Positions 6,478 through 32,248 of a stretch of 32,248 bases of DNA are shown piece after piece; positions within the stretch are counted from its first letter, which is position 1, and every line of letters starts with the position of its first letter. The stretch is from a virus (Duplodnaviria; Caudoviricetes), in the IMG/VR virus record IMGVR_UViG_3300011339_000283, positions 1 to 32,248 of that record. The stretch is one strand, 5' to 3'. The notes beneath the pieces were generated by a model. It was not told the origin of the DNA, made no database searches, and worked only from the letters and a program-made list of their open reading frames with translations. The position numbers and the translations under genes were made by a program.

Positions 6478-9400
6478 ATGGACAGAGACAAGGCAATCCG
6501 CGCAGCGAAGCTGACGGCCAATCGCATCTCAAACGAGAGCGACCGCCTTGAAACATCGACCCAAGATGCCTCACATATTTTTGGGGATGGTGCGGCTTAC
6601 AAGTTTTACAAGCACCCCAAAAGTGGTGGGTACATCCAAATCCTTCAACGGCCAAGCGGCCCAGCCTCCGTAATTAACCTTGAAGTACCCGAAGAATTTA
6701 GAGGCCAAGGTATTGGTCAAAGACTTCAAGCTGAGGCCATGAAAAATCACCCATCACTTATGGGTCAGGTGTCATCTAAAGCAGCCGCAACAACAGCGTA
6801 CAGGCTTGGCCGTAGACCTTATGGAAACCCAGAGGCAACGCTTGATGATGTGTTTAAAGGCATAGACAGTGACAGTTCTGTCAACATGCTGACCCCCGAT
6901 GCACAACCAAAATCAAAAGGCGGCGCACTTGAGCTTGCCCGCCACGCCACGGCGGTGGGCCGCGCGGGCGGCCAAGTCGCCCCGTCAGAATACCTGCCTG
7001 ATGTCCCCCGCGCCGTCCATGCCGATGGTGGCCCCGCCATGTTTGAGGGCATTCACCCAGACCTTCGAGGCGAAAGCGGCGCACCGCTTGACCTGTATCA
7101 CGGCACGACACACCCAGAAGAGTTTGAGGCGTTTGACGATGCCAAGCTCGGCGCGCGTGACGCTGGCTTCTTTGGTCGTGGCCACTACCTATCGCCCGAT
7201 AAGGGAAATGCGGAAGAGTACGGCGAAGACGGCACCGTAATCGGCCCGCTCCACGCCGCATTGAAGAACCCATACGTTTGGGATGTGTCGAATGACATGA
7301 GGTCACACAGCACCCTGCGTGATCTTCAGTCTATGGGTATCATGCGTGACAAGAACGAACTAAGGCCTTGGGATAACCTGCAATCTCACCACGTCAGGCC
7401 ATTTATGGCGGAGATGCAAAAGCGCGGACATGATGGTGTGATCGTTAAGACTGGCCATGAACACCTGCCCAATGGCATCTCAGAGGTGGTGGCGTTTGAT
7501 CCACGGTCGATCAAGCACAAAGAGGCTGAGGTGTTTGACCCCACCGACCCCCGCATTCGCCGTGAGAATGGCGGCGAGGTTGAGAAAAAGCGCGACTTTA
7601 TGAGGGACAACCCTGGCGGCGAGTGGCTTGAGGGCAAGCGGGCAAGGGCTGCCCAGTACCCAGGCGATAAATTTATGATTGGTGCCACCACGGGCGTAAT
7701 TGGAGGCAGATCAAGCATGTTTTTGCCAACCAATGTCCTGAAGGGCATTACTGGTTTGGAAAACGAAGTGCGCCGTACTGGTGATCCTAGATACGATGCG
7801 TTGCTAGCCGACGCGCAGAGTGGTGGCTTTGACCCAGAGCAAAAGGGTAACAAGGTTGTGGTGGCCGTAAACCACTTTGGGCAGCCGTACCTCCTTGAGG
7901 GAAACACACGGGTGGCCGTGGCGCACTCCATGGGCATCCCAAAGGTCAAGGCCGAGGTCAGATACTGGAATGGCGCTGAGAATGTTGACGGCCCAATGCA
8001 CCCAGAAAACGTCTTTGACATGGCATCGGACAGCCCCGATGTCGCCAAAGCCACGGGTGGCCCCGTCATGGGCTATGTCCCGATGGCGTCCCTGACCGTT
8101 CCACGGCTGGCCGTTGCGCGCGCGCCAGTGCAGCAGCAGCAGGCGACCGTGGGCAAGTTCAGCGACTCCCTGAACTCTCTGATGGACACCGTCGAGGGCT
8201 TCAAGAAGAAGCCAGAGGCTGATGCCCCAGCGGAATCGCCCAGCGCAGCCAGTGAAGGTCACGCGCCTCAAGGCATGAGCGAGGCGGCGGCGGCAGCATA
8301 CGGAAAGCTGACTGACGCATGGGGGCAGCCCCTCACCGTTGTCAGCGCGTACCGCGACCCAGAGAAGAACCAAGAGGTTGGCGGCGCAAAGGGCAGCCAG
8401 CACCTGCATGGCAACGCATACGACATTGACACGTCAAAGCTTTCCTATGAGGATCGCCTGCGCCTTGCCGATGAGGCGTGGAATGCTGGTTTCAGGGGTA
8501 TTGGCTTCTATGATAACAACATGCACTTTGATGTTGGCGACCCCCGTGGTTGGGGGCCGTCTCACAGCAGGGACAGCATCCCAGAGTGGGCGCAGCCCTT
8601 TACTCAGGAGCGTTATGGCTATGCAGACGGAGGAAGCGCGATGAACGATGACAACCAAGACACCAGTGGCAGAAGCAATGTTGAGAGCCTCTCACTGGCT
8701 CGATCTTTGCGAAATATTGGCTCTGGCGGCGGAGATGATCGAGTCCAAAACCTTTTTGACAAGATCGCTGCTGGGCAACAGCAGGCGCAAAAAGCTTATG
8801 AAATGGCCCATTCAAACGGAGAGTTTGACGACTTCAAGATCGGCGATACGTTTGTTTACAAGCATTCAAAAAACCCCACCCCCATGAAGATAACTGGATT
8901 TTCGGTCAGCCGTGCGGAGTCATTCCCGCAAAGAAAGCGCATCTACAACAACCATGTCCCTGTACTGGAGATGGAAGACCAAGATGCTGGCAAGAAGGTC
9001 AACAAGTACCCTGTGGAGGCGTTCCAAGAAAACCTCCACAAGTACGATTTTGTCAGTGGAAAGCCGCGCGCCGTAAAGGCTGGCGGCGGATCGATAAACG
9101 ACGATAACCAAAACGGAGCAATGGAAAATGGCAATGCACCCATCAATTCTGCAACACGCCCCCAAGCGGGAGAACTTCCAAACGCAGGAGGAATACGAGG
9201 AGGCGCTGGCCTTCTTCAAACACAGAACGAAGCACCTCTTGAGGGACTCCCCCAAAAAATAGTCATCCCTCTGACGGGTCAGGTCATTCAGGCGGGTGCA
9301 GATCCTCGGATCAGGCAAGTTGCGCGTGACTACATGGCGCAGGCAGGGCTGTCATACAGCCCGCCGACAAAATACGCTAGGGTTGACCCGAAGCGGGCCG

Positions 9401-10173
9401 CGCGCATCGCCTCTGACTATACCGACATGGAAGACAATCCTGATGATCCCCTGACCAAAGCATCGTACAATGCAATGATTAAGGAAACGATGGATCAGTA
9501 TCACGCCGCAAAGAAATCTGGCTTGAATATTGAGTTTTGGAACCCCCGAAAGCAGGAAGATCCTTACAAAGCATCACCACGTCTTGCCACGGAAGACATT
9601 CGCAAGAACCACCACATGTGGGTATTCCCTACCTACTCAGGGTATGGAAGTGGTGAGCCGATCAGTGAGGATGACGCAAAGAAAAACCCCCTTCTCCAGC
9701 TTACTGGAGAGACGTGGAATGGCATCCCCGTGACCGTCAATGACGTGTTCCGCGCCATCCACGACTATTACGGCCACGCAAAAGAAGGGCTAGGGTTCCG
9801 CGCCGACGGTGAGGAAAACGCATGGCGCGCACATGCTTCAATGTTCTCGCCGCTTGCCCGCATGGCCATGACATCTGAAACCCGTGGGCAGAATAGCTGG
9901 CTCAATTATGGCCCGCATGGCGAGCATAACCGCAAGGCCCGCACCGAGGACACTATTTTTGCTCCACAAAAGATTGGGGTCATGTCCCACCTGTCCCATC
10001 ACGAGGGTGCCGAGGACTTTATCACGCCCGAAGACATCAGCTTCATGGCGTCAATTCGCAAAAGATTTGGCAAGAAACTGGGCGGCGCGGTTGAAAAGGC
10101 CCTTGCCTTAACACGCAGATTTACGAAGGATGGGAAGTCTGCTATAGATGCGCTCAAACCCAAGGGGAAGTGA
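6478..10173 (+). CDS. Large polyvalent protein: GNAT + ADP-ribosyltransferase + ParB-like + M15 peptidase + HDxxGH domain
   Basis: GNAT LEVPEEFRGQGIG (~6600-6815); ART LYHGT..FFGRGHYLS..GHDGVIV..SEVVAF (~7090-7560); ParB/Srx-like YLLEGNTRVAVAHSMG (~7565-8040); M15 SAYR..SQHLHGNAYD..MHFD (~8270-8610); FRAIHDYYGH..GEENAW..ETRGQNSW (~9230-10070). Confidence 0.85.
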   Translation: MDRDKAIRAAKLTANRISNESDRLETSTQDASHIFGDGAAYKFYKHPKSGGYIQILQRPSGPASVINLEVPEEFRGQGIGQRLQAEAMKNHPSLMGQVSSKAAATTAYRLGRRPYGNPEATLDDVFKGIDSDSSVNMLTPDAQPKSKGGALELARHATAVGRAGGQVAPSEYLPDVPRAVHADGGPAMFEGIHPDLRGESGAPLDLYHGTTHPEEFEAFDDAKLGARDAGFFGRGHYLSPDKGNAEEYGEDGTVIGPLHAALKNPYVWDVSNDMRSHSTLRDLQSMGIMRDKNELRPWDNLQSHHVRPFMAEMQKRGHDGVIVKTGHEHLPNGISEVVAFDPRSIKHKEAEVFDPTDPRIRRENGGEVEKKRDFMRDNPGGEWLEGKRARAAQYPGDKFMIGATTGVIGGRSSMFLPTNVLKGITGLENEVRRTGDPRYDALLADAQSGGFDPEQKGNKVVVAVNHFGQPYLLEGNTRVAVAHSMGIPKVKAEVRYWNGAENVDGPMHPENVFDMASDSPDVAKATGGPVMGYVPMASLTVPRLAVARAPVQQQQATVGKFSDSLNSLMDTVEGFKKKPEADAPAESPSAASEGHAPQGMSEAAAAAYGKLTDAWGQPLTVVSAYRDPEKNQEVGGAKGSQHLHGNAYDIDTSKLSYEDRLRLADEAWNAGFRGIGFYDNNMHFDVGDPRGWGPSHSRDSIPEWAQPFTQERYGYADGGSAMNDDNQDTSGRSNVESLSLARSLRNIGSGGGDDRVQNLFDKIAAGQQQAQKAYEMAHSNGEFDDFKIGDTFVYKHSKNPTPMKITGFSVSRAESFPQRKRIYNNHVPVLEMEDQDAGKKVNKYPVEAFQENLHKYDFVSGKPRAVKAGGGSINDDNQNGAMENGNAPINSATRPQAGELPNAGGIRGGAGLLQTQNEAPLEGLPQKIVIPLTGQVIQAGADPRIRQVARDYMAQAGLSYSPPTKYARVDPKRAARIASDYTDMEDNPDDPLTKASYNAMIKETMDQYHAAKKSGLNIEFWNPRKQEDPYKASPRLATEDIRKNHHMWVFPTYSGYGSGEPISEDDAKKNPLLQLTGETWNGIPVTVNDVFRAIHDYYGHAKEGLGFRADGEENAWRAHASMFSPLARMAMTSETRGQNSWLNYGPHGEHNRKARTEDTIFAPQKIGVMSHLSHHEGAEDFITPEDISFMASIRKRFGKKLGGAVEKALALTRRFTKDGKSAIDALKPKGK

Positions 10174-10174
10174 C

Positions 10175-12469
10175 ATGGCTGACATCAAAAAGGCAATGGA
10201 TTTGGTGTCTAAGTACCAAGATCCGCCAAGCAAGAGGATGCAGGGGTTTGATTGGCGCAAGCTGAGAGATGTTCAAGAAGAACTTGGCGGCATGACCGAG
10301 ATACCAAGTCACGTTGAAGATTTTGGCGCGTACATGGACGAAATGGCGCGCAAGGCCGCAACAACTGGACTTTCCCCGCGCGAATTGATCAAGGCCTACG
10401 CCATTACACGGGCAAGCATTCAGCGGCGTTCCCAGAACGTTGATAAATTACGTGCGTCTGGCCTTATATTGCCGCAGAGCGCCACTGGCAGCATTAGGCC
10501 AGAAGGGGCAATGGCCGAGTGGCTGAAGTCGCCAATGGGGCAACGCTACCTTGATGCTGCTGAGATGGGCAAAGTCAATCAAGAAGCTGTTGAACATGCG
10601 CAAGGTGTGATGAAACCGTTTGGGTTGGATACCGAAAGGGATGCTTTGCCGTGGGCCGCAAATAATTTGCATGACAAGCACCAAGCCGTTTCTGACATGG
10701 TGAAGAGGGCGCTGTCAGGCAACAGCCCTATTGCAGAGTGGCGCGAGTTTGCAAACGGATTGCGTGGGATTGGCACTGCAAAAGCTGGTTTTGTGGCGTC
10801 CGTTCTTGGCCGTGGCGATCAGTCCACACTTGATGCTCGCCAAATAAACCTTCACGTTGGAAAACCATCCAATAAGGATGAGAAACGTGTTCGTGACAAT
10901 GCTATTGCAAGGTCTGGATTTGACGCTGTTGACCGACTTTCCGCTCGTCAAACGGCACTTAACCCAAAGATGGACTCTGGATTGGAACCTTTCCGCCAAC
11001 ACCTGACCCACCACGCGACATGGGATAAGATTGGCAATGAGCAGACAACGCATAGCGACATTATAGACTCTATGAAGAACGCCAAAGACGGCGGTCGTAT
11101 TGGGTACGCCACAAAGGGTTCTGTTAAAGACGACAGTGAAGACCACCCTCTGGCCAAATCTTTTTTGAACGCAATACACGGAAGCGTGAACCAAGGAATG
11201 GTGCGGCAAGCTCTTGAGGCTGCTAAGACATCTGGGTTCATTCGAACAGGTGCTGACTTGATTAGGCGTGACCCCCGTTTACAAATTTCGCAACCTAAGT
11301 TGTCCAGCTTAAAGGATAGTAAAAAAAGCGGCCACTTGATCACACCATTTGGGGATTTTCAGGCTGAATTTGCACCCAAGAACAATCTGTCACCTCAGAA
11401 ATACGTCAACATTGAAAGGATGCAGAACGAGGGTGCCTACATCAGACCATTTGTTGGCGATAAGACTCCAGCAGACACCATTCTTTTAGGCCATAACGGC
11501 GTACCGCTTGTTGATCCAGTAAATCAAGAAGGTGGTGGCGACTATATGCGGTCTGATTACTCTCGAACTAACCAACCAACAGGCTGGAGATCGCGTGAAG
11601 GAGCGGCTAAGGGTATGCAGAGTCGTGTTGGCCAAGACGTTCCTGAAGGATCGCCAATCTACGGCGCTCACATGTTGATGGGCAACCCCGCCGCAGATAG
11701 CTCGCACATGCTTTTGCACTCTGTAATCAATCAAGTACCAAATTTGCCAATTGCAAAGCGTCACATTGATGCATTTGATGAGGAAATGCGTGAAAAGTTT
11801 CCGCATGACGAGAAATATCCAATGCCTTGGCCTGGAATTTTAAACACCAATGCGGTTCACGATTTCTTTTACAGGCAGCCAACCGTAGTTCGTGGCAAAA
11901 AGGGTCAGCCAGACATGATTCGCCCTCAACCTAGACCTGGCAAGCACGTTGCAAAATTTATCCAGAACATGGACAGTGTCCGCTGGCAATCAACTGGCTT
12001 TCCCAATGTTGGGTCTGCAAGATTTGCCAATATACACCCAGATTTGATGGCGGAGCCGCAAGGCGCAGTTGGATATGGCCTTACCCAACTTGACCCAAAG
12101 GGCGCACTGGTGGCAAACGATGAAATGCGCGCCCACGGCACCTACACTCACGGCATACCAACATTGGGATACGCTGGACGCTTCCGCGCATTGGTTCCTG
12201 CCGAGAAACTGTATGAGCGTGACGTAAAGAACGCTAATACTTCAACAGAAGCGCAGCAGACCCTTGCAACCAAGTTTCCTGCGATCAAAGTGGATCAGAG
12301 GGTGGTCGATTTGGTGAAGGGCGCTGAGGAAGAACGCATGAAGGAATACGGCTTCAAGCGTGGCGGCAAGGCCAAAAACATAGATCGTGCATTGAAGCTC
12401 ACTTCGATGTACAATGAAAGCGCAACAGGGACGCCTGGTAACCTCAGAGGATCGAAAAATGGACGCTAA
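10175..12469 (+). CDS. Two-domain polyvalent-type protein; N-terminal HhH DNA-glycosylase-like domain plus unknown domain
   Basis: ATG 10175 after AAGGGGAAG; LRGIGTAKAGF...LG....TLD (10760-10834); domains separated by AKDGGRIGYATKGSV. Confidence 0.75.
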   Translation: MADIKKAMDLVSKYQDPPSKRMQGFDWRKLRDVQEELGGMTEIPSHVEDFGAYMDEMARKAATTGLSPRELIKAYAITRASIQRRSQNVDKLRASGLILPQSATGSIRPEGAMAEWLKSPMGQRYLDAAEMGKVNQEAVEHAQGVMKPFGLDTERDALPWAANNLHDKHQAVSDMVKRALSGNSPIAEWREFANGLRGIGTAKAGFVASVLGRGDQSTLDARQINLHVGKPSNKDEKRVRDNAIARSGFDAVDRLSARQTALNPKMDSGLEPFRQHLTHHATWDKIGNEQTTHSDIIDSMKNAKDGGRIGYATKGSVKDDSEDHPLAKSFLNAIHGSVNQGMVRQALEAAKTSGFIRTGADLIRRDPRLQISQPKLSSLKDSKKSGHLITPFGDFQAEFAPKNNLSPQKYVNIERMQNEGAYIRPFVGDKTPADTILLGHNGVPLVDPVNQEGGGDYMRSDYSRTNQPTGWRSREGAAKGMQSRVGQDVPEGSPIYGAHMLMGNPAADSSHMLLHSVINQVPNLPIAKRHIDAFDEEMREKFPHDEKYPMPWPGILNTNAVHDFFYRQPTVVRGKKGQPDMIRPQPRPGKHVAKFIQNMDSVRWQSTGFPNVGSARFANIHPDLMAEPQGAVGYGLTQLDPKGALVANDEMRAHGTYTHGIPTLGYAGRFRALVPAEKLYERDVKNANTSTEAQQTLATKFPAIKVDQRVVDLVKGAEEERMKEYGFKRGGKAKNIDRALKLTSMYNESATGTPGNLRGSKNGR

Positions 12470-14174
12470 AAGCCTACGCGAGGCAATGAAGCAGAAGGCC
12501 AAGCGCCTCTGCGGAGCCACTTCGGAAAAAGTTGACGCATCGACGTTTACCCCAGCTGAGCCGCTGAACGCAGACGTGAAGACGGGCGCTCGCCCAGTCT
12601 CTCGCCGCGCATTCAAGGTCGGCGGCAAGGTGGATGGCGCTGAAGCCATGACCCACGCTGGCCGCACACCGCGCAAGTCTGGTGGAAAAACGGAATACGC
12701 CAACGCATTGGTGAACCGTAACGTCAAGGATGCCAATGAAGAGCGCGAAGGCATTAAGCACGTAGGTGGTTTTGCCAAAGGCGGTGTTCCAGAATACAAC
12801 GAAGAATCCGTCGAGAAAGCTATACAGTCTTCGCGCCAGAAGATTGGCAAGAAGGAGTCCAGCACGATTAAGTCCCTACTTCAGGGTCGCAAGGCATCTA
12901 TGCCGATGAAGAAAAATGACGATGGCAATACAGAGTACGCCAAAGGTGGACGTATCTCCAAAATGGGCGGTGGCCCGATGGACGCCAAAAAGGGTGAGGG
13001 CAAGATGACTGCCCCATTGGATCACTATCAGCCCCTGCCTCAAGAGGAGCGTTCAAACATCATCACCATGGATCAAGCTGACGAAATGATGCGCGAAGAA
13101 ATGCGCCGTCAGGGCGACATGACCCGCCGCAAACATGGTGGCAAGACCGAGGGTTCTGCCAAGGACATGATGGAAGACAAGAAGATGGCTGCCAAGATGG
13201 GCATGACCATGAAGGAATGGGAAGCATCCCATGCCGACAAGATGCACGACATGCCATCCAAGGGCCGCACCAAGAAGATGGGCGGCGGCAGCATGGGTTA
13301 CGCCGCTGGCGGAAAAATGAAGATGGTCGAGAAAGACGGCAAGAAGGTTCCATTCTTTGCCGCTGACGGCGTTGGCAAGATGGCAAACGGTGGCGGCCTG
13401 TACGCCAACATCCACGCCAAGCGCGAGCGCATTGAAGACGGCTCGAAAGAGAAGATGCGCAAGCCAGGTGCCAAGGGCGCTCCATCCGCCTCTGACTTCA
13501 AGGACGCAGCCAAGACCGCCATGAAAAAGGGCGGCGTTGCACCTCTTTTACCCCCCGTTAAAGAAAGAGATTTTCCAATTAGCGGCAGGGATATGCCGAC
13601 AGAAATGCGGCAAGAAAGTGATCGATACGCTGGCGATTTAACTCGCCGCAAGTCTGGCGGCAGCGCCATGAAGAAGGGCGGAAAGGCCATGCACCACAAG
13701 GACTGCATGTGCAAGGCCTGCGGTGGCGCTGCGATGTCTGAAGAGGGTGGCCGCACGGCCCGCAAGTCTGGTGGTAAGGTTGGCAAGAGCAACATCAGCA
13801 TCAACATCTACCCGCACACCGCCGAGAAGGCTGGCGCTATGCCCGTCCCACCCGCTGGTATGCCGCCCATGATGAAGCCACCAATGCCAATGCCTGCGCC
13901 CATGCCGTCGGCACCGCCCCCAGCCCACATGTCGCTCCCTCCAGGGCTGCAGCAGGCTCTGGCAGGCGCTGCGGGCGCTGGGCCTATGCCACCCGCTGGC
14001 GGTGGGATGCCTCAGCCCATGATGAACCGCCCCCCAATGCCTGCGCCTATGATGGGCCGCAAGGCTGGCGGCAGAGTGGAATACCCAATCACTGGCGGTT
14101 CTGGTGGCGGGCGCGCTCGCAAGGAAAAGGTCACAGCCTACGGCGAAAAGATGAACAAAGACCTCAGAAAGTAA
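12459..14174 (+). CDS. Low-complexity K/M/G-rich protein with many xxxGG repeats and Pro/Met-rich C-terminus; probable internal virion protein
   Basis: GAGG before ATG 12459; at least 15 GG motifs separating short peptides. Confidence 0.8.
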   Translation: MDAKSLREAMKQKAKRLCGATSEKVDASTFTPAEPLNADVKTGARPVSRRAFKVGGKVDGAEAMTHAGRTPRKSGGKTEYANALVNRNVKDANEEREGIKHVGGFAKGGVPEYNEESVEKAIQSSRQKIGKKESSTIKSLLQGRKASMPMKKNDDGNTEYAKGGRISKMGGGPMDAKKGEGKMTAPLDHYQPLPQEERSNIITMDQADEMMREEMRRQGDMTRRKHGGKTEGSAKDMMEDKKMAAKMGMTMKEWEASHADKMHDMPSKGRTKKMGGGSMGYAAGGKMKMVEKDGKKVPFFAADGVGKMANGGGLYANIHAKRERIEDGSKEKMRKPGAKGAPSASDFKDAAKTAMKKGGVAPLLPPVKERDFPISGRDMPTEMRQESDRYAGDLTRRKSGGSAMKKGGKAMHHKDCMCKACGGAAMSEEGGRTARKSGGKVGKSNISINIYPHTAEKAGAMPVPPAGMPPMMKPPMPMPAPMPSAPPPAHMSLPPGLQQALAGAAGAGPMPPAGGGMPQPMMNRPPMPAPMMGRKAGGRVEYPITGGSGGGRARKEKVTAYGEKMNKDLRK

Positions 14175-14445: not shown

Positions 14446-14835
14446 ATGCCCCATATGCCCATGAGCCACGAAGAAGACCCAAAGAAAAAGCTGCTGGAAG
14501 AGCTTGGTGACATCTCAAACGTTGAGTTGTTCCACAACCAAGTACTTCTTGCCGTCTACCTGCGGCCAGAAAAGACAAAATCTGGCCTGATTTTGACTGC
14601 AAATCACCTTGATGAAGATCGATACCAGTCAAAAGTTGGCCTGCTGGTCAAGCGAGGGCCTCTCGCATTTGAGCAGGACGGCAATTGGTTCACTGGAGTG
14701 ACCTTCCAAGACCACGACTGGCTCATTTTCCGCCCATCTGACGGCTGGTCTATCACCGTCAATGGCGTTTTGTGCCGCATTTTTGATGACATCAGCATCA
14801 AGGGCCGCGCACCCCACCCAGATTCCGTTTATTGA
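14446..14835 (+). CDS. GroES/Cpn10-like co-chaperonin
   Basis: LFHNQVLL, mobile-loop EKTKSGLIL, GLLVKRGP, DWLIF, ITVNGVLCRIFDDISI. Confidence 0.85.
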   Translation: MPHMPMSHEEDPKKKLLEELGDISNVELFHNQVLLAVYLRPEKTKSGLILTANHLDEDRYQSKVGLLVKRGPLAFEQDGNWFTGVTFQDHDWLIFRPSDGWSITVNGVLCRIFDDISIKGRAPHPDSVY

Positions 14836-19618: not shown

Positions 19619-20221
19619 ATGACCACCAGCGTTTTCTATGTGTACGAACACTGGCGGCTTGACCGTGATGAATGTTTTTACGTTGGTAAGGGTAAGGGCA
19701 TTCGCGCATACAAGATGCGTGACCGTAATGCTCATCATCGGGCAATTATGGGTAAACTATCCCGCGAAGGTAGCGGCATGGAAGTGCGCATGGTTGCGAC
19801 AGGCTTGACTGAGGATGAGGCATTTGCGATTGAGGTTGAACGTATTGCTTTTTGGCGTGAGGCTGGCATTGATCTTGCAAATCGCACTAATGGCGGAGAT
19901 GGTGTAAGCGGCTTGAAGATGTCGGATGAAGCTAAGGCCAAAATGTCCGCTGCCAAACTTGGGAAGAAGCAAAAACCAGATGTTGTAGCTAGGCGCATTG
20001 CCCCCCTAATTGGCCGCAAACAGCCGCGAGAGGCAATAGAGATGGGTGCTGAAAAACGCCGTGGTAATCCGCTTTCGGCAGAGCATAAAGCTAAAATTTC
20101 AGCCGCACACACAGGAAAGATTGTAAGCGATGAGACGAGGGCTTCTCTGAGCGCTGCCAATAAAGGTAAACCGTGGAGTGAGAAGCGCAGGGTTGCGGAG
20201 AATACCAGGAGGGAGCTATGA
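19619..20221 (+). CDS. Free-standing GIY-YIG-like homing endonuclease with NUMOD3 repeats
   Basis: FYVYEH..FYVGKG..R, EAFAIE, LANRTNGGDG, repeats SDEAKAKMS / SAEHKAKIS / SDETRASLS. Confidence 0.85.
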   Translation: MTTSVFYVYEHWRLDRDECFYVGKGKGIRAYKMRDRNAHHRAIMGKLSREGSGMEVRMVATGLTEDEAFAIEVERIAFWREAGIDLANRTNGGDGVSGLKMSDEAKAKMSAAKLGKKQKPDVVARRIAPLIGRKQPREAIEMGAEKRRGNPLSAEHKAKISAAHTGKIVSDETRASLSAANKGKPWSEKRRVAENTRREL

Positions 20222-20898
20222 CCACTAGTGGTGCATACACGTTTAATCCAGGATTGGGAGAAATAGTTCTCTATGCTTATCAAAACATAGGCATACGTCC
20301 AGCTTCTATTTTGCAAGAACACATGGAGACAGCAAGAATGGCTGCCAACATGATGCTTTCAAGATTTTCAAATCAGGGCGTAAACCTTTGGGCGGTTGAC
20401 CTGATCACCACGCCACTGATTGAGGGCCAGACCACCTACGCCGTAGCGCCAAACACAGTCATGATCCTCGACGCATATACCACGACCGATCAGGGCATCG
20501 ACCGTGTCATCATGCCAATCAGCCGTACAGAGTACGCATCATACCCGAACAAAGAACAACAGGGCTTCGTCACGTCCTTCTGGTATGACCGCCTCATCTC
20601 GCCCACAATCACGCTGTGGCCCGTTCCTGATGGCACCTCGTCCACGATCTTGAAGTACTATCGTGTGCGCCAGATCCAAGACTCAAATCTCCAAAATAAC
20701 GAAAATGTCGAAATTCCCTATTTGTGGCTGGAGTGCTTTGCTGACGGACTGGCATACCGACTGGCGCGCATCTGGAACCCGCAAATGGCCGTGGCACTCA
20801 AGGCTCAGGCCGATGAGAGCTATGCCATCGCATCCAACCAGAACGTGGAGAATGTCGGCACGTACATCTCACCAATGTTGGGGTCGTATTTTAGATGA
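20218..20898 (+). CDS. Head-tail adaptor protein (paralog 1)
   Basis: ISRTEYASYPNK, WYDR..ITLWPVPD, EIPYLWLECFADGLAYRLA. Confidence 0.7.
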   Translation: MTTSGAYTFNPGLGEIVLYAYQNIGIRPASILQEHMETARMAANMMLSRFSNQGVNLWAVDLITTPLIEGQTTYAVAPNTVMILDAYTTTDQGIDRVIMPISRTEYASYPNKEQQGFVTSFWYDRLISPTITLWPVPDGTSSTILKYYRVRQIQDSNLQNNENVEIPYLWLECFADGLAYRLARIWNPQMAVALKAQADESYAIASNQNVENVGTYISPMLGSYFR

Positions 20899-21548
20899 AA
20901 AAGTTTTACGTATATGAGCATTGGCGACCCGATCTTGACCTCCCGTTTTATGTGGGCAAGGGTAGTGCGTCTAGGTTTGACCCAAATCGAACCAGAAACA
21001 AACATCACAGCAATATAAAGAACAAGCTAAAGAAGCTTGGAATGTGCGTAGAGGTACGCATGGTTGCATCTGGCCTTTCTGAGGATGACGCATTGCGCTT
21101 GGAGATAGAGCGAATTGCTTTTTGGAAAGAACGCAACGTTGAACTTTCAAACAAAACTGCTGGCGGTGACGGTTTGAAAAGCCCGCCTGAAGACGTATTA
21201 GAAAAAATGAGGGCTGCATCCAAAAAACGTTGGTCTGCGCCTGATTCAAGAGAGAAGCACTCCATTGCCACCAAAATTGGCATGGATAATGATGCTGTAA
21301 GGGCAAAGTGTTCTGGCGGGCGGGCGGGAAGAAAAGCATCTTTAGAAACGAAGGCAAAGATGTCTATTTCAGCTATGGGTCATCCCGTATCCGAGGAAGC
21401 CCGTAAAAAAATATCCAAGGCACACCTTGGCAATACCTATGGATCAAAGACCCGTGGAAAGCCAAGGCCAAAAATGTCTGATGACACAAAGGCAAAAATG
21501 AGAGAGTCTCAACGTGCGCGGCGCGAACGAGAAAAGGCTTTGTCGTAA
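20895..21548 (+). CDS. Second GIY-YIG-like homing endonuclease with NUMOD3 repeats
   Basis: FYVYEHWR..FYVGKG..R, VRMVASGLSEDDALRLE, LSNKTAGGDG, SLETKAKMS / SEEARKKIS / SDDTKAKM. Confidence 0.85.
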   Translation: MKKFYVYEHWRPDLDLPFYVGKGSASRFDPNRTRNKHHSNIKNKLKKLGMCVEVRMVASGLSEDDALRLEIERIAFWKERNVELSNKTAGGDGLKSPPEDVLEKMRAASKKRWSAPDSREKHSIATKIGMDNDAVRAKCSGGRAGRKASLETKAKMSISAMGHPVSEEARKKISKAHLGNTYGSKTRGKPRPKMSDDTKAKMRESQRARREREKALS

Positions 21549-25963: not shown

Positions 25964-28516
25964 ATGCCACACGCAAGCCTCAAGCTAATACCAGGTGTTG
26001 ACCAGAACAGGACACCCGCCCTAAATGAGGCGGCTATCTCTGAGAGCAATCTGATCAGGTTTGTGCCAGATCGGCAGGGCCTTGGGCTGCCTCAAAAGCT
26101 TGGAGGCTGGACGCAGTTTGTCAGCAATGCTCAGTCTTCGGTTGTGCGCGCCCTGCACTCTTGGGCCAACATAGACGGCGAATCTTATTTGGCAATTGGG
26201 GATGAGGACAGTCTAAACATTGCAACAGCCAACGGCTTTTCATCTGAAATATCGCCCCAGTTCTACGAATACAATCTTCCAGTGTCGGTTGACACGGTGA
26301 GTGGATCGGCCACTGTAACCATCAATGACACTAATTCAAATATTTCATCGTACGATGGTGTAAACATCCTGACTCCAATCAGCGTGGGTGGCATCATACT
26401 GTCTGGGTATTACCCTCCAATTGCCTTGAACGATGATGCGTACCAAGTTGTTGCCCGAAACATTATTGGCCTGACAACACCCGCCACGCAGACATTTTCG
26501 GTTACCGCGATAACGGTATCAGGTTCGTCACCCAACTTCATTGCCACGGCGATTTGCTCCCCATCCACTACCGTTGTGACGGTTGGCTCCACAGTAACTT
26601 TTTCAGGTGTAACTCCAGTTGGGTACAATGCTGCTTGGACAGTCCTCACATCGTCTGCTGGGACGTTTACCTTCTCAACTGGCACGACCAACTTTGGCCC
26701 CTTGACTGTGGCTGGCACCTTTATTGCGCCTAGCGGCGCGGTGCCTGTTTTTGACACCACGAGCGGCCAGATCAATGTTAAGGTAACCTTGGCAAACCAT
26801 GGGTACACTGCGGGATCGACATTTGCCATTTTGGTTCCAGTGAGCGTTGGGGGCTTGACCCTCTATGGGAATTACATCGTACTTGATACACCAGTGCTGA
26901 CAGCAAATGATTTTTACATTGCGGCGGAGAACTCTGCAACATCGACTCAGACCGTGTCAATGAATGGGGGTGCCGCAAGGATCGTCTACTACGTGGGTAA
27001 GCAGAACATACCGCCTCCAGGTGGCTTTGGTGACGGCCTCTTTGGCGCTGGCGGATTTGGCACGGGCGTAACCTCAAGTGGTGGCCGTCAACTTGCCATT
27101 GCGTCAATATCCGCATCCAGCCTCGTGGCAACGGTGACGGTAAATCAGGTTTTGTATGTCGCCCCAAATACGCGAATTACAATTACTGGCACCACAAACT
27201 ACAATGGGACGTTCATTGTCACGGCGGCAACTTCTGGCGCTACCAGTACATTCTCCTTTGCGGTGACAACAAATCCCGCAACCGAGACATCTGGGACTGT
27301 CACCACTGATTCGTGGGGATTTCCACCTGGTGTGTACAGTTCCACCAGTCAAAACGTGTCTGCACCCCTTGAGGTCAATGACTGGTCTTTGGACAACTGG
27401 GGCGGCTTCTTGATGGCAAGCCCAACCAACAGCGGTCTGTTCTATTACGACACTATGGATGGCGGCAATCATGCAAACGTTGTTCCCTATGCCCCCACAG
27501 TCAGCGAAGGCTTCTTTGTGTCGATGCCAGAGCGTCAGATCATTTGCTACGGCACGACATTCAATGGCATAAAAGACCCACTTCTGGTGCGTTGGACGGA
27601 CATTGGCAACTTTACCAGTTGGGTTGCCACGGTCAGCAATCAGGCGGGTTCTTTCCGCATCCCGAAGGGGTCTAAGATTGTCGGCGGTATGCAGGGGCCG
27701 CAGCAGGGCCTTCTGTGGACGGACACCAATTTGTGGTCGATGCAGTACATCAACTTGCCACTGGTATATTCGTTCAACGAGATTGGCGCTGGCTGCGGTT
27801 TGATTGGCCGAAAGGCCATGGGAACCATGAGTGGTATCGTGTACTGGATGAGCCAGAGCCAGTTCTTTGTCTTGGCTGGGGGTGGCGTTCAGCCGCTGCC
27901 ATGCCCCGTCTGGGATGTCATCTTCCAAGACATCGACCAAGACTACCTCAGCAACATTCGTTGCGCGCCCAACAGTCGCTTTGGCGAGATTTCTTGGTAT
28001 TACCCAACCACAGGGTCGAATGGTGTCCCCACAAAGTACGTCAAGTACAACACCCTGCTCCAGCAATGGGATTTTGGTACGCTGACCCGCACCGCTTGGA
28101 TTGATCAGGGGGTTTTCGGCCCACCCATTGGCGCTGATGATGACGGCATCATCTACCAGCATGAGACATCCCAGAATGCCGCTGGCGCTGAGATGGATGC
28201 ATATGTCCAGACAGGTTACTTTGCCCTCAGTGAGGGTGACAATATGACGTTCCTTGATCAGGTCTGGCCAGACATGAAGTGGGGATATTACGGCGGCTCG
28301 AACAATGCCAACGTCAATATCACGTTCTACGCTGTGGACTACCCAGGCCAGACACCCAGAGTTTATGGGCCGTACAACGTAAACCAAGGGACAGAGTACA
28401 TCTCGCCACGCATTCGTGCGCGCCTGATCTCAATCAAGATTGCGGGCAGCCAGATCGACACGTTCTGGCGATTGGGTAACATCCGATACCGCCTCCAACC
28501 AGATGGAAAATATTGA
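25964..28516 (+). CDS. Tail nozzle / DNA-stabilisation protein (P22 gp10-like) with inserted beta repeats
   Basis: 850 aa; QKLGGW, WSLDNWG, DPLLVRWTD, LLWTDTNLWSMQY, VYWMSQSQFF, RTAWID, WRLGNIRY. Confidence 0.8.
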   Translation: MPHASLKLIPGVDQNRTPALNEAAISESNLIRFVPDRQGLGLPQKLGGWTQFVSNAQSSVVRALHSWANIDGESYLAIGDEDSLNIATANGFSSEISPQFYEYNLPVSVDTVSGSATVTINDTNSNISSYDGVNILTPISVGGIILSGYYPPIALNDDAYQVVARNIIGLTTPATQTFSVTAITVSGSSPNFIATAICSPSTTVVTVGSTVTFSGVTPVGYNAAWTVLTSSAGTFTFSTGTTNFGPLTVAGTFIAPSGAVPVFDTTSGQINVKVTLANHGYTAGSTFAILVPVSVGGLTLYGNYIVLDTPVLTANDFYIAAENSATSTQTVSMNGGAARIVYYVGKQNIPPPGGFGDGLFGAGGFGTGVTSSGGRQLAIASISASSLVATVTVNQVLYVAPNTRITITGTTNYNGTFIVTAATSGATSTFSFAVTTNPATETSGTVTTDSWGFPPGVYSSTSQNVSAPLEVNDWSLDNWGGFLMASPTNSGLFYYDTMDGGNHANVVPYAPTVSEGFFVSMPERQIICYGTTFNGIKDPLLVRWTDIGNFTSWVATVSNQAGSFRIPKGSKIVGGMQGPQQGLLWTDTNLWSMQYINLPLVYSFNEIGAGCGLIGRKAMGTMSGIVYWMSQSQFFVLAGGGVQPLPCPVWDVIFQDIDQDYLSNIRCAPNSRFGEISWYYPTTGSNGVPTKYVKYNTLLQQWDFGTLTRTAWIDQGVFGPPIGADDDGIIYQHETSQNAAGAEMDAYVQTGYFALSEGDNMTFLDQVWPDMKWGYYGGSNNANVNITFYAVDYPGQTPRVYGPYNVNQGTEYISPRIRARLISIKIAGSQIDTFWRLGNIRYRLQPDGKY

Positions 28517-28866
28517 TGGCATCTCTGTCAGACATTCTTACCGCCGCCAAGAACCTTGTCACCTCGGTGAACCAGCTTGGCCAGACGTACCTCAAAATCA
28601 ACGGAACCGCCCGATCATCCACTCTGACTGCAACCACTTTGGTAGCCAATGGCCAAGGCAGGCTCGCCTCAATCAGTGTCGTGGTCGCTGGCAGTTCCAA
28701 CTGCGTGGTGTATGACAGCAACAACGCATCCAGCTTGACTAGCGGCTTGGCGGCAGTGGCAAACGCCGTTGGCGTGACGGTGATCAATATGCCATACAAC
28801 AATGGCCTCGTCGTTGTCCCAGGCACTGGTATGACTGTCGTAATCTCGTACTCTGAGGGAGCATAA
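28516..28866 (+). CDS. Small tail-cluster protein
   Basis: TGATG coupling; N-terminal helix plus beta-rich C-terminus (GLVVVPGTG). Confidence 0.7.
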   Translation: MASLSDILTAAKNLVTSVNQLGQTYLKINGTARSSTLTATTLVANGQGRLASISVVVAGSSNCVVYDSNNASSLTSGLAAVANAVGVTVINMPYNNGLVVVPGTGMTVVISYSEGA

Positions 28867-28867
28867 A

Positions 28868-29434
28868 ATGCCGCTAAAGCATGGATCATCGCAGGAAACC
28901 ATTTCTGATAATATCTCAGAGATGGTGGACGCTGGACACCCACAGGATCAGGCTATCGCCGCAGCCCTCAGAACCGCTCGCGCGCGCGGTGGAAGGACAA
29001 AGGTTCACAAGGGTGCCATCCACAGTTCTGTGGCTGGCCGCACAGACCACCTCCCGATGCATGTGGCATCTGGCTCCTACGTCATCCCCGCAGACATCAT
29101 CTCGGCCATGGGTGAGGGAAATTCCATGGCTGGCTTCAAGGTCGCCAAGAACATCTTCTCTGGCAAGAGGCCGTACGGGCAAAGCGGGATGCCATACGGG
29201 GCCAACGGGCTTCCATACGGCGTTCCAGCCCCACGCAAGGCTGAGGGTGGTGATGTTGATTCAGTACCCATCGTTGCGGCTGGCGGCGAGTATGTGATAC
29301 CACCCGAAGACGTTGTCGAGATTGGCAAGGGTGATCTGGATCACGGCCACAAAATATTGGACGCATTCGTAAAAAAGATGCGCCAAAGGACGATTAAAAC
29401 TTTGCAGAAATTACCTGGCCCAAAGAAGGATTAA
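28868..29434 (+). CDS. Protein with duplicated GG...G(S/E)YVIP domain
   Basis: RARGG...DHLPMHVASGSYVIPADIISAMGEG and KAEGGDVDSVPIVAAGGEYVIPPEDVVEIGKG. Confidence 0.8.
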   Translation: MPLKHGSSQETISDNISEMVDAGHPQDQAIAAALRTARARGGRTKVHKGAIHSSVAGRTDHLPMHVASGSYVIPADIISAMGEGNSMAGFKVAKNIFSGKRPYGQSGMPYGANGLPYGVPAPRKAEGGDVDSVPIVAAGGEYVIPPEDVVEIGKGDLDHGHKILDAFVKKMRQRTIKTLQKLPGPKKD

Positions 29435-29437
29435 AGC

Positions 29438-29929
29438 ATGAGTGAGATTAAGGTTCGCGTTGGGGTTCCCGAAGATTTCAATGAGATGATGCGGCTCTCG
29501 ATTGCGGCGACACAGGAAAACGCCTTCATTGCGCCAGACATTGGGCTGCTCGCAAACCAAGTGTATAAGTCACTGATCCAACAGAACGGTGTGGTTGGGG
29601 TGATTGGTAATAAGGTCGGCGGAAAGCTTCAGGGAGCGATCCTGCTCAATATCGGCCCAGTGTGGTACAGCGCGGAGCCTGTCCTTGAGGAGAAGGCGAT
29701 CTACGTTGACCCTGAGTACCGAGCCGCAAAGGGTGGGCGCGCGCGCAAGCTGGCCGAATTCGCAAAGGGAATGGCCGAGGAGCTTGACTTGCCACTGGCC
29801 ATTGGTGTGCTGTCAAACAGCAGGACTGAGGCTAAGATCAGGCTCTACGAGCGAACCTTTGGTAAGCCTGCGGGTGTCTACTTCCTTTACAATGCAAAGA
29901 CTGGTATAGTTCCCGAAACCGAGGGGTAA
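29438..29929 (+). CDS. GNAT-family acyltransferase
   Basis: VRVGVPEDF, LEEKAIYVDPEYR..GGRARKL, KIRLYERTFG; AAGGA upstream. Confidence 0.8.
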   Translation: MSEIKVRVGVPEDFNEMMRLSIAATQENAFIAPDIGLLANQVYKSLIQQNGVVGVIGNKVGGKLQGAILLNIGPVWYSAEPVLEEKAIYVDPEYRAAKGGRARKLAEFAKGMAEELDLPLAIGVLSNSRTEAKIRLYERTFGKPAGVYFLYNAKTGIVPETEG

Positions 29930-29933
29930 TCCA

Positions 29934-32248
29934 ATGGGCGGCAAGACAACAACCTCAACGAACAAGGTCACCATTCCCAAGGATGTCCTTGATCGGTATA
30001 ATGCCGTCAACGCTCAGGCGGCGCAAGCTGCCCAGAACCCGTTCCAAAAGTACGGCACTAAGCCTGAGGATTTTGTCGCCCAGTTCAACGAACAGCAACT
30101 GAAGGGTGTTGAGGGCATCAATACCGTCGCTGGTATGGGGCCAGTGTATGAAAACGTGGACAAGTATCTCAACCCCTACATTAAGAACGTTGCTGACACT
30201 ACCCGCGCGCAGATAGAGCAAGCCAATGAGCAGGCGCAGTCTGGCGCACTCGGCACCGCCATACAGTCCAATGCATTTGGTGGCGACCGCGCTGGCGTTG
30301 CCGCCGCAAACCTCGCGGGACAACAAAATCTTGCCATGGGTTCGACCATGGCAAACATTTACGGCGAGGGCTATAATAGGGCCGTCGACACAAGCATGAA
30401 TGACAGGAACAGCCTGTTGGGCGTTGCTGGTGCGCAGTTGGGCGCAGGTACTCAGATGCAGCAGACCACGCAGGCTGGCATTGACGCTCTTATCAACCAG
30501 TTCCAGCAGGAGCAGGGCTATCCATTCCAAGTGGCGCAGTTCTTGGCCAACATTGCCATGGGAACTGGCGCGCTGTCTGGATCAACCACCACAGGTACCC
30601 AGATGGCACCCTTCTTCTCGGATCGCCGCCTCAAGCACGACATCAAAAAGATTGGCGAGGCGGACAACGGCCTGCCGATCTACACCTTCAAGTACAAGGG
30701 TGATGAGCATCACCAGACCCATGTCGGCTTTATGGCTGATGAGGTTGAGAAGAAAAACCCTGAAGCTGTGGGCCTCGACCCCAGTGGCTACAAGACTGTT
30801 GACTACAACAAGGCCACGGAGAGCATGGGTGGCGCGGTCAAGGGATACGCTGAAGGCGGTGTGGCTGGGCCATACGGCACCAAGGTTGGCCAAGGTGTGG
30901 GCGTGGGCAGCTATGTGCCGCAGGCGTACCTTCCAGTTGGCGAGTTGATGGTGGCAGACCCAAGTTTTGCCCAGCAAAGCCAAGCAAACTTCTTGGATAC
31001 CCTAAATTCAGCGGCCACCGCAGGCGAGAGCGTTTTGAAAATACGCAATCTCCTTCGTGATCCTGACGCAAAGGTACCAACAAAAGAACCCGCCGCGCCT
31101 GCTGCTGCAGGTAATATCCAACAGTTCGAACCGCCAGCAGGCCTTATAGGCGGTGGCGCGGGGCGCTATGCTGTTGGCGGTGGGGTGCAGCCACAGGTGC
31201 ATGGCGATTATATGTCCAGCACACTGGCGGCGCAGGAGGCTGACAAGGACAAGCCAGAACTTAAGGTTGCTGGACAACAAGATCAGCCGAAGTCTGGCAT
31301 GGAAAACGTTGCCAGTGCCTTGGGGGCTGCCGCATCCATTGCGTCCCTATTCCCGTCTGACCGCCGCCTAAAGCATGATATTAAGAGAATTGGTAAGACT
31401 GAAAAAGGTCTGCCGATTTACACCTTCAAGTACAAGGGTGATGACCGCGAGCAAACCCACGTTGGCTTCATGGCCGATGAGGTTGAGCGCGACCATCCAG
31501 AGGCCGTTGGCAAGCGGGATGGCTACAAAACCGTTGACTACAGCCAAGCCCACAAGTTTGCCGATGGTGGCGTTGCGGGCCGTCATGGCTATGCCCTTGA
31601 TGGCGCAGTCGAGGAGCGCATTCGTGATGCCATGCGCGCAACCGCAGCCAATGAGAACAACATGCGCCTGACCCGCGATGAAGTACCCGCCGTGCAGACA
31701 CTGGGAAGCCTGCCCAATGCGAGCGTTATGGCTGCAGAGGCAGCGCCAAGGACAGCAGACGAGTCGGCAAACGCCTACAGGGCTGCCGCTGAAAACCGCT
31801 TTGCTGGCCTCGCCCCCGCTGCTGATCAGGTACGCCCTATGCCACGTCCCGCTGGCTTGGTTCCCGCCGCCACTCCCACCGTGGAACAGCGCCCAGAGCC
31901 TCGCCCAGCTGGCCTTGGCCCCGCTGCGGTAGTAAAGCCCATGCCTCGTCCAGAGGGTCTTGAGGCCTTTGCAACTGGTTATGGCGCGGCCCGAAACCAC
32001 TTCCGTACAAAAATTATTCCCCAAGAAAGCGGTGGTCGCCAGTTTGACGAAAACGGCCAACCGCTGACCTCACCCAAGGGCGCAACTGGCATTGCGCAAG
32101 TTATGAAAGCCACGGGGCCAGAAGCGGCTAAACTTGCAAATTTACCGTGGGATGAATACCCCTGGGAAAAAGATGCCGATTACAATGCTGCGATTGGTGA
32201 GGCATATTTCCTAGATCAGTATCGCAAATCTGGCCCTATTGATAAGGC
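29934..32248 (+). CDS. Ejection/DNA-transfer-type polyprotein (3' truncated): pilot-like N-domain, two peptidase S74 domains, lytic transglycosylase
   Basis: Hand translation: open from ATG 29934 (MGGKTTTST...) to window end; Q/A/G-rich with NAFGGDR; SDRRLKHDI at 30618 and 31356; IIPQESGG..SPKGATGIAQVM from ~32013. Confidence 0.9.
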   Translation, partial: MGGKTTTSTNKVTIPKDVLDRYNAVNAQAAQAAQNPFQKYGTKPEDFVAQFNEQQLKGVEGINTVAGMGPVYENVDKYLNPYIKNVADTTRAQIEQANEQAQSGALGTAIQSNAFGGDRAGVAAANLAGQQNLAMGSTMANIYGEGYNRAVDTSMNDRNSLLGVAGAQLGAGTQMQQTTQAGIDALINQFQQEQGYPFQVAQFLANIAMGTGALSGSTTTGTQMAPFFSDRRLKHDIKKIGEADNGLPIYTFKYKGDEHHQTHVGFMADEVEKKNPEAVGLDPSGYKTVDYNKATESMGGAVKGYAEGGVAGPYGTKVGQGVGVGSYVPQAYLPVGELMVADPSFAQQSQANFLDTLNSAATAGESVLKIRNLLRDPDAKVPTKEPAAPAAAGNIQQFEPPAGLIGGGAGRYAVGGGVQPQVHGDYMSSTLAAQEADKDKPELKVAGQQDQPKSGMENVASALGAAASIASLFPSDRRLKHDIKRIGKTEKGLPIYTFKYKGDDREQTHVGFMADEVERDHPEAVGKRDGYKTVDYSQAHKFADGGVAGRHGYALDGAVEERIRDAMRATAANENNMRLTRDEVPAVQTLGSLPNASVMAAEAAPRTADESANAYRAAAENRFAGLAPAADQVRPMPRPAGLVPAATPTVEQRPEPRPAGLGPAAVVKPMPRPEGLEAFATGYGAARNHFRTKIIPQESGGRQFDENGQPLTSPKGATGIAQVMKATGPEAAKLANLPWDEYPWEKDADYNAAIGEAYFLDQYRKSGPIDK
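30618..31553 (+). repeat. Dispersed direct repeat encoding the two S74 domains (~30618-30815 and ~31356-31553)
   Basis: For example ctgccgat(c/t)tacaccttcaagtacaagggtgatga is present in both copies. Confidence 0.9.

Follow-up and report, generated by a model that had tools for sequence, protein, structure and literature searches.

A two-copy tape-measure junction module in a short-tailed phage as a candidate maturation peptidase for injected proteins

We found that a 188-amino-acid protein encoded among the late genes of a short-tailed phage contains two copies of an unnamed module of approximately 55 residues, which also occurs in tape measures (those of lambda (gpH), JBD30 and Douge) and in podovirus ejection proteins. 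The gene lies in a stretch of 32,248 nucleotides that was analysed as a whole (the window). In tandem copies of the module, a conserved Asp and a conserved Glu are divided between the partners, and other proteins of the window are enriched in an Ala-x-Gly-Gly (AxGG) motif that coincides with a mapped cut in the tape measure of phage T5. A composite site of two acids, together with a motif at which cleavage has been mapped in another phage, is suggestive of a maturation peptidase. Our main reading, to which we assign a probability of about 0.42, is that this free-standing two-copy module may be a maturation peptidase that cuts injected AxGG proteins in trans.

Under this reading, the two repeats would build one shared Asp60/Glu141 site in a single-chain pseudo-dimer, and this composite site would cut injected proteins in trans just before the Ala of (K/R/F/Y)-Ala-x-Gly-Gly. 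The two carboxylates may activate water, as in an aspartic or glutamic peptidase, and the products would be small basic core peptides and freed enzymes. Single-copy modules would act as dimers, taking the Asp from one chain and the Glu from the other. In a sealed tail tube each joint would presumably need its own module in cis; in a podovirus head one gene could serve many joints.

The 188-residue gene and its build

The open reading frame at 28868–29434 (plus strand) and its two repeats are confirmed as real. Its ATG is preceded by a GAGGGAG stretch, and it is tightly packed between a gene for a 117-residue protein that ends at 28866 and a GNAT gene that starts at 29438. In comparisons with three relatives that are about 91% identical, nucleotide differences number 15, 9 and 91–94 at the first, second and third codon positions, a concentration at third positions that indicates purifying selection. 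Relatives of near-equal length are abundant (3,242 among 4,000 candidates), and 625 longer relatives were found among 847 candidates. The gene is built as follows.

28868..29434, plus strand: gene for the 188-residue protein; helical module at the N terminus, then the tape-measure junction module twice
28868..29008, plus strand: N-terminal module, residues 1–47; PHROG 2423 (E 3e-13), two predicted helices
28979..28993, plus strand: first motif, R38-A-R-G-G42, at the joint of the N-terminal module and repeat 1; site of cassette insertion in relatives
29006..29158, plus strand: repeat 1, residues 47–97; loop and Asp60 (29045–29047) kept, Ser70 where the family has Glu
29159..29236, plus strand: variable Gly/Pro/Tyr linker of low model confidence; cassettes inserted in relatives (spacer 24–375 residues)
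29237..29251, plus strand: second motif, K124-A-E-G-G128, directly ahead of repeat 2
29252..29431, plus strand: repeat 2, residues 129–188; Glu141 (29288–29290) kept, shorter loop, variation at the Asp position (137 of 240 relatives)

A preliminary description of this DNA had called the protein a stand-alone, duplicated domain resembling the C terminus of tape measures, with a GG motif ahead of each repeat. The duplication is borne out: the repeats share 13 of 36 residues by BLASTP (E 3e-7, a single comparison) and are related at 82% probability in a profile–profile comparison. That description omitted residues 1–47, which match PHROG 2423, a 52-position family without an assigned function that is matched alone in many cultured phages. 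The same residues also match, with weak E-values, small genes that adjoin head maturation protease genes in Acinetobacter phages. The motif precedes repeat 2 in 213 of the 228 relatives that could be parsed (of 240), as proposed. Ahead of repeat 1 it is displaced: in the alignment, the slot that holds AxGG in single copies corresponds to H47-x-G49, and R38-A-R-G-G42 lies upstream. One relative that lacks the motif ahead of repeat 2 (L063:8770-9159) has lost its internal AxGG and retains both the Asp and the Glu.

'Stand-alone' describes the form seen here, that of 79 among the 80 loci fetched (260 residues or less) and that of MW202675, a complete relative in which the module is present in one gene only. 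It does not describe the 625 longer relatives or the other podoviruses, in which the module is fused to an ejection protein. The window is about half the size of MW202675, and a second module copy elsewhere in this genome is thus possible.

The module family and its two acids

Stepwise searches led from the repeats to the end module of the first ejection-cluster protein in MinM2, GB2A, DSL-LC04, MW202545, LKA5 and HTVC023P, and from these podovirus copies, in further steps, to tape measures. The copy in ReqiPine5 matched 1,534 phage records, and most of 60 listed matches are annotated as tape measures. With a profile of 49 sequences, the family comprises 39,956 clusters at E ≤ 0.001 in a library clustered at 50% identity. 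Against PDB sequences, this profile found Douge (E 6e-28), JBD30 (E 5e-10) and, in third place, lambda gpH at only E 0.26; a query built from close relatives gave nothing useful against PDB sequences directly, and a diverse profile was needed. For discrimination we used a profile rebuilt from 663 copies in 150 top proteins, all other than the 188-residue protein. Lambda gpH reached 20.3 bits over residues 733–782, and the repeats reached 17.0 and 14.1 bits; the best score among 506,773 reversed decoy residues was 8.4 bits, so that the suggested homology to tape measures, including lambda gpH, stands. Profile–profile comparison gave the repeats probabilities of 78% and 94% against the module family, and 93% and 96% against the podovirus single-copy form. 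The lambda relatives retrieved for a further profile were 80 sequences without any difference, so that none could be made.

Neither Pfam nor NCBIfam has a model dedicated to the module, and searches of open-access papers showed no account of the module or the motif. The 188-residue protein matched no NCBIfam family at E 0.01, including the tape measure models TIGR01541 and TIGR02675. It is unlike a tape measure in being short rather than long and helical, and its neighbours are not long-tail genes. Judged by these profiles, it is a member of the junction-module family, and neither a tape measure nor a member of any peptidase family tested. A match to a Curtobacterium 'capsid and protease fusion' was rejected because it lies on the strand opposite to that gene. 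Giant proteins carry up to 11 copies; for example, P0242, P0248 and others have 5,000–7,900 residues and 8–11 copies, some arranged as pairs with the Glu-bearing copy first and the Asp-bearing copy second.

Across the 663 copies, the Asp is present in 96% and the Glu in 95%. Isolated copies have both acids in 587 of 591 cases, and none lacks the Glu. Paired copies lack the Glu in 31 of 72 cases, and all 31 keep the Asp. Of the 36 close pairs, 31 retain a single Glu, five retain two and none is without; the Glu-bearing partner is without the Asp in 23 of the 31, and both orders of the split occur (18 and 13). When the pairs are reduced to 13 non-redundant ones, none of the 9 copies without the Glu is among the 9 without the Asp (p 0.008, not corrected for shared ancestry of pairs), and the pattern of exactly one Glu per pair, present in 9 of 13, is not significant (p 0.12). 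Loss of both acids from one copy was seen in 0 of 663, with one weak match (11.8 bits) among 667 at a lower cut-off. Copies with both columns masked still score at least 23 bits, and double losses would therefore have been detected. A model of one active plus one dead copy would predict such joint loss.

The 188-residue protein obeys the split. Repeat 1 has Asp60 and no Glu, and repeat 2 has Glu141, an arrangement shared by all 240 relatives, in which the repeat 1 counterpart of Glu141 is Ser (233) or Ala (7); the earlier observation that only repeat 2 keeps the Glu is upheld. A conserved Asp plus Glu is thus supplied by the pair together and not by a single repeat. The acids are split in this way also in F116-like proteins (L087, L367, L369, L372 and L373) and in MW202545. 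That tandem copies share out the Asp and the Glu in this manner suggests a pseudo-dimer with a single composite site, and it is likely, from the sequence pattern, that the two repeats fold together into one shared Asp60/Glu141 site.

Structure prediction was less informative. A model of the full protein (pLDDT 66.5) has strands in both repeats and an unresolved linker, and a model of the repeats only reached pLDDT 51.9. With these modest models, a PDB fold search returned nothing at E ≤ 0.001, a viral fold library returned four uncharacterised phage proteins, and wide structural searches found common helical arrangements only (best Z 5.1 for the N-terminal helices and 3.2 for the repeats); the models appear to match no known fold convincingly. 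Complex prediction for residues 44–188 with a 35-residue motif stretch of the protein at 29934 scored 0.01 against a mark of 0.32, in a run in which the controls were not folded. Searches of Pfam, PHROGs and NCBIfam, including a Pfam check of 49 members, returned no peptidase family.

The AxGG motif and the proteins that carry it

We counted 16 instances of the strict motif form, (K/R/F/Y/M/H)-A-x-G-G, in the 35 proteins of the window, where 2.1 are expected, and 28 of a loose form, where 4.5 are expected, an enrichment of 6- to 8-fold over composition-matched shuffles. The motifs are concentrated in the post-portal proteins, the 188-residue gene and the ejection protein, and are enriched in four other late proteins. 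Most lie in proteins without the module (14 of 16 in the window and 10 of 11 in MW202675). Over 234 distinct motifs, the codons of the motif Ala are as mixed as background (1.94 versus 1.98 bits), which indicates a signal at the protein level. For the first motif Gly, the codons GGC and GGT are favoured (entropy 1.20 bits; background 1.79). An origin of the motif as a DNA scar was rejected on codon variety.

Matches to an SU10-type portal, adaptors and a protein of the tail stabilisation or nozzle type identify a short-tailed phage. The 188-residue gene belongs to an operon-like run of late genes, between the stabilisation and GNAT genes and ahead of an ejection-type protein. Its neighbours and the candidate substrates are listed here.

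6478..10173, plus strand: polyvalent protein after the portal gene, with ART-PolyVal and M15 peptidase; six loose motifs, candidate substrate
10148..12469, plus strand: 773-residue protein without a family match; one loose motif near the C terminus, weak candidate substrate
12414..14174, plus strand: 586-residue basic protein; 14 loose motifs against 1.0 expected, candidate substrate
25964..28516, plus strand: tail stabilisation or nozzle-type protein, upstream of the 188-residue gene
29438..29929, plus strand: GNAT acetyltransferase; follows the module gene in most loci (65 of 80)
29934..32246, plus strand: ejection-type protein matching DNA ejection and virion PHROGs, running off the window end; three AxGG motifs, candidate substrate

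Several loose motifs of the polyvalent protein fall at domain borders, and the lone motif of the 773-residue protein is not above chance. If cut at its motifs, the basic protein at 12414–14174 would give many short Lys/Arg-rich peptides. It has a Pro/Met-rich C-terminal stretch, and the gene directly after it, in the head gene block, encodes a GroES-like co-chaperonin (14446–14835), as likewise in MW202675 and CRP-901. The ejection-type protein has two S74 chaperone-like modules, with an AxGG after each, and then a transglycosylase-like end. Two NUMOD3 homing-endonuclease genes (19619–20221 and 20895–21548) flank the adaptor gene. Family searches with the 35 window proteins returned no match to a head or maturation protease. 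One gene facing many motifs in proteins that lack the module, in a window where no maturation protease was matched, favours a peptidase that would act in trans.

Relatives of the 188-residue protein also use the motif as a boundary. Long cassettes separate the repeats in 120 of the 228 parsed relatives, and of these 120 spacers 118 contain at least one motif and 110 at least two. Some relatives have ART-PolyVal or PHROG 16028 ahead of repeat 1. PHROG 16028 also lies between motifs in the protein at 12414, and behind a motif in the relatives P0035 and P0221. Because this cassette is shared and motif-bounded, modules appear to move between these proteins as motif-bounded units. Relatives carry cargo inside their versions of the 188-residue protein, which makes it a carrier in addition to a possible processor.

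The preliminary description had named co-occurrence of the gene with motif-rich proteins as a check. We compared 15 of 43 phages chosen by their stabilisation protein, over stretches of 10–61 kb with crude open-reading-frame calls; four of the module-positive phages had been fetched earlier because of the module. The six module-positive phages have 26 motifs against 11.1 expected, with most of the excess from one genome, and the nine module-negative phages are at background (20 against 16.1). HTVC023P has the module and no strict motif in its ejection genes. The support that co-occurrence gives to a module acting on AxGG proteins is weak.

A mapped cleavage in T5 bears on the motif more directly. 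According to two reports, pb2 is cut after R1127, as determined by intact mass, into pb2* and pb2C (PMC10038345, PMC11937500). The pb2 record reads A-E-G-G from residue 1128, placing the cut at R|AEGG, and the masses that we computed for the fragments (9,701.7 and 121,680) agree with those reported (9,702 and 121,683). Five of six further tape-measure ends that were fetched have R-A-x-G-G, and the sixth has R-A-S-S-G. The site is disputed, as an earlier study placed the cut at V1148 (PMC11937520), and a 1973 paper mentions, in its title, host involvement in T5 tail cleavage. The T5 cut directly supports the proposal that proteins are processed at AxGG. The module behind that cut is not linked to ours by profile (probability 0.3–2.7% with a 20-sequence profile, AxGG alone being in common), and T5 therefore supports the motif and not the junction module as an enzyme.

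Competing explanations and known systems

Several points weigh against a peptidase. The Asp and the Glu would serve just as well to bind a metal or an amine, no peptidase family was matched, the T5-type module is unlinked and its site disputed, a host role is possible, co-occurrence is weak and the lambda masses do not match exactly. The protein might instead be a non-catalytic clamp whose Asp/Glu pocket grips AxGG strands and in this way helps to load cargo, or to arrange it, close to the portal or the tail; as a variant, the pocket possibly grips a new Ala N terminus made by another protease of host or phage. We consider a binding role of this kind somewhat less likely than a peptidase, with evidence on both sides. 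The Asp/Glu split is as compatible with one binding pocket as with a catalytic site, and the lack of a peptidase match and the title-level hint of a host role in T5 fit it too. It also finds a parallel in crAss001 gp45 (cargo protein 1, PF25725; L088:11988-14516), an ejected cargo with several AxGG motifs whose segments seen by cryo-EM (214–245 and 425–552) both lie between such motifs. It is reported to bind the portal and treated as uncut (PMC10172136). The model of its portal-bound segment begins at residue 425, which is the Ala in one of the AxGG motifs; such a start would fit cleavage, which that paper, as far as its available text goes, did not consider. PF25725 is the nearest named cluster by language-model features (0.83–0.85, a lead only), but profile comparison of the repeats with the gp45 domain (425–552) gives a probability under 1%. 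A clamp with one site per protein would, moreover, face up to 28 motifs stoichiometrically, and cleavage in lambda takes place in the assembled tail (PMC12617516), where access by an outside protease is probably limited.

The insertion of cargo in relatives, between the repeats in 120 of 228 or ahead of repeat 1, raises another explanation: that the 188-residue protein is the smallest, empty form of an injected carrier, in which the module would act on no chain but its own, by anchoring or processing it, and leave the other AxGG proteins unaffected. Fusion of the module to the first ejection-cluster protein in other podoviruses, the giant proteins with up to 11 copies, suggesting one module per joint, and the weak co-occurrence with motifs in other proteins all agree with this. 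Yet the cargo-free form is common and conserved, with 3,242 near-length relatives, the relative without an internal motif (L063) still keeps both acids, and most motifs lie in proteins without the module, as counted above; we hold a pure carrier to be improbable. It is very improbable that the motif is only a flexible Gly linker or a recombination scar in the DNA and that the resemblance to tape measures is merely structural. The proteins are Gly-rich and the first Gly codon is skewed, as such an origin might produce, but the enrichment persists over composition-matched shuffles, the Ala codons are mixed, the T5 cut coincides with the motif and near-invariant acids would be unexpected in a linker.

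Overall, the proposal of the preliminary description, that the protein acts in trans on GG-motif peptides by cleavage or docking, is supported in part. If the trans-cutting peptidase is real, it would represent a new peptidase family and a polyprotein-style maturation of cargo in abundant aquatic podoviruses; if the protein only binds, it would still be a shared cargo-handling module joining tape measures and podovirus ejection proteins. A broader generalisation can be entertained, with more doubt than confidence: that a new family of minimal Asp/Glu peptidases, dimeric, with about 55 residues per half and present in tens of thousands of phage proteins, is the missing catalyst of lambda-like tape-measure maturation, and that podoviruses freed a single-chain version that cuts AxGG cargo in trans. 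In either case the module is widespread, unnamed and tied to an open question in lambda biology, and the 188-residue protein is a small free-standing form of it that could be expressed and assayed without a tail.

Proteases in which one enzyme cuts many core proteins at a short motif include T4 gp21, those of phiKZ-type heads and the Gly-directed proteases of adenoviruses and poxviruses, and dimeric aspartic proteases form one site from two half-domains. The searches by sequence, and those by fold with the modest models, gave no match of the 188-residue protein to these virion maturation or dimeric aspartic proteases. Its proposed site would combine Asp and Glu, rather than two Asp or a Ser or Cys, and unlike the Gly-directed proteases it would cut before Ala, two residues ahead of Gly-Gly. 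T5 pb2 resembles our system in that its mapped cut coincides with the motif of the 188-residue protein, and differs in that the module behind the cut is of another sequence class, with two Glu and without the Asp loop; it has been called a muralytic metallopeptidase motif.

The closest well-studied counterpart is residues 733–782 of lambda gpH, a homologue of the module that has the Glu and is flanked on either side by AxGG, in a protein that is matured by cleavage. These residues lie inside the fragment gpHC and inside NCBIfam TIGR01541 (which covers 472–813). In lambda the module is a single copy in an 853-residue siphovirus tail protein; here there are two copies, in a short-tailed phage without a tape measure. 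A 2025 paper states that gpH is cleaved after tail assembly, and gives the site and catalyst as unknown (PMC12617516). Our reading names residues for this maturation, with a predicted cut at F733|A734, possibly a second one at Y778|A779, and Glu755 as the module Glu. Cleavage at F733 should produce fragments of 79.8 and 12.5 kDa, which are near, and not equal to, the approximately 78 and 14 kDa given in the same source. JBD30 gp46 (1019–1074, a predicted 'hook') and Douge gp16 (two copies) are clear homologues, and their modules are not resolved in cryo-EM maps. The JBD30 study reports no peptidase motif and puts forward, as a guess, cleavage at 1066 and an anchoring role (PMC11445458); we would instead predict a cut at F1019|A1020. 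For other tape measures, the last helices alone are resolved, according to PMC13033339, PMC10713586 and PMC11972413.

Among podoviruses, the same module occurs in the first ejection-cluster proteins of GB2A, DSL-LC04, MinM2, HTVC023P, MW202545 and LKA5 (gp57), whose genes have a similar position after the tail stabilisation gene. In MW202545, two ejection-cluster proteins have long Cys-rich runs of low complexity (L082:8444-11605). These six phages differ from ours in that the module is fused to a long protein, in some cases annotated as a tape measure. LKA5 and MW202545 have it twice, and the two acids are divided between the copies as in the 188-residue protein.
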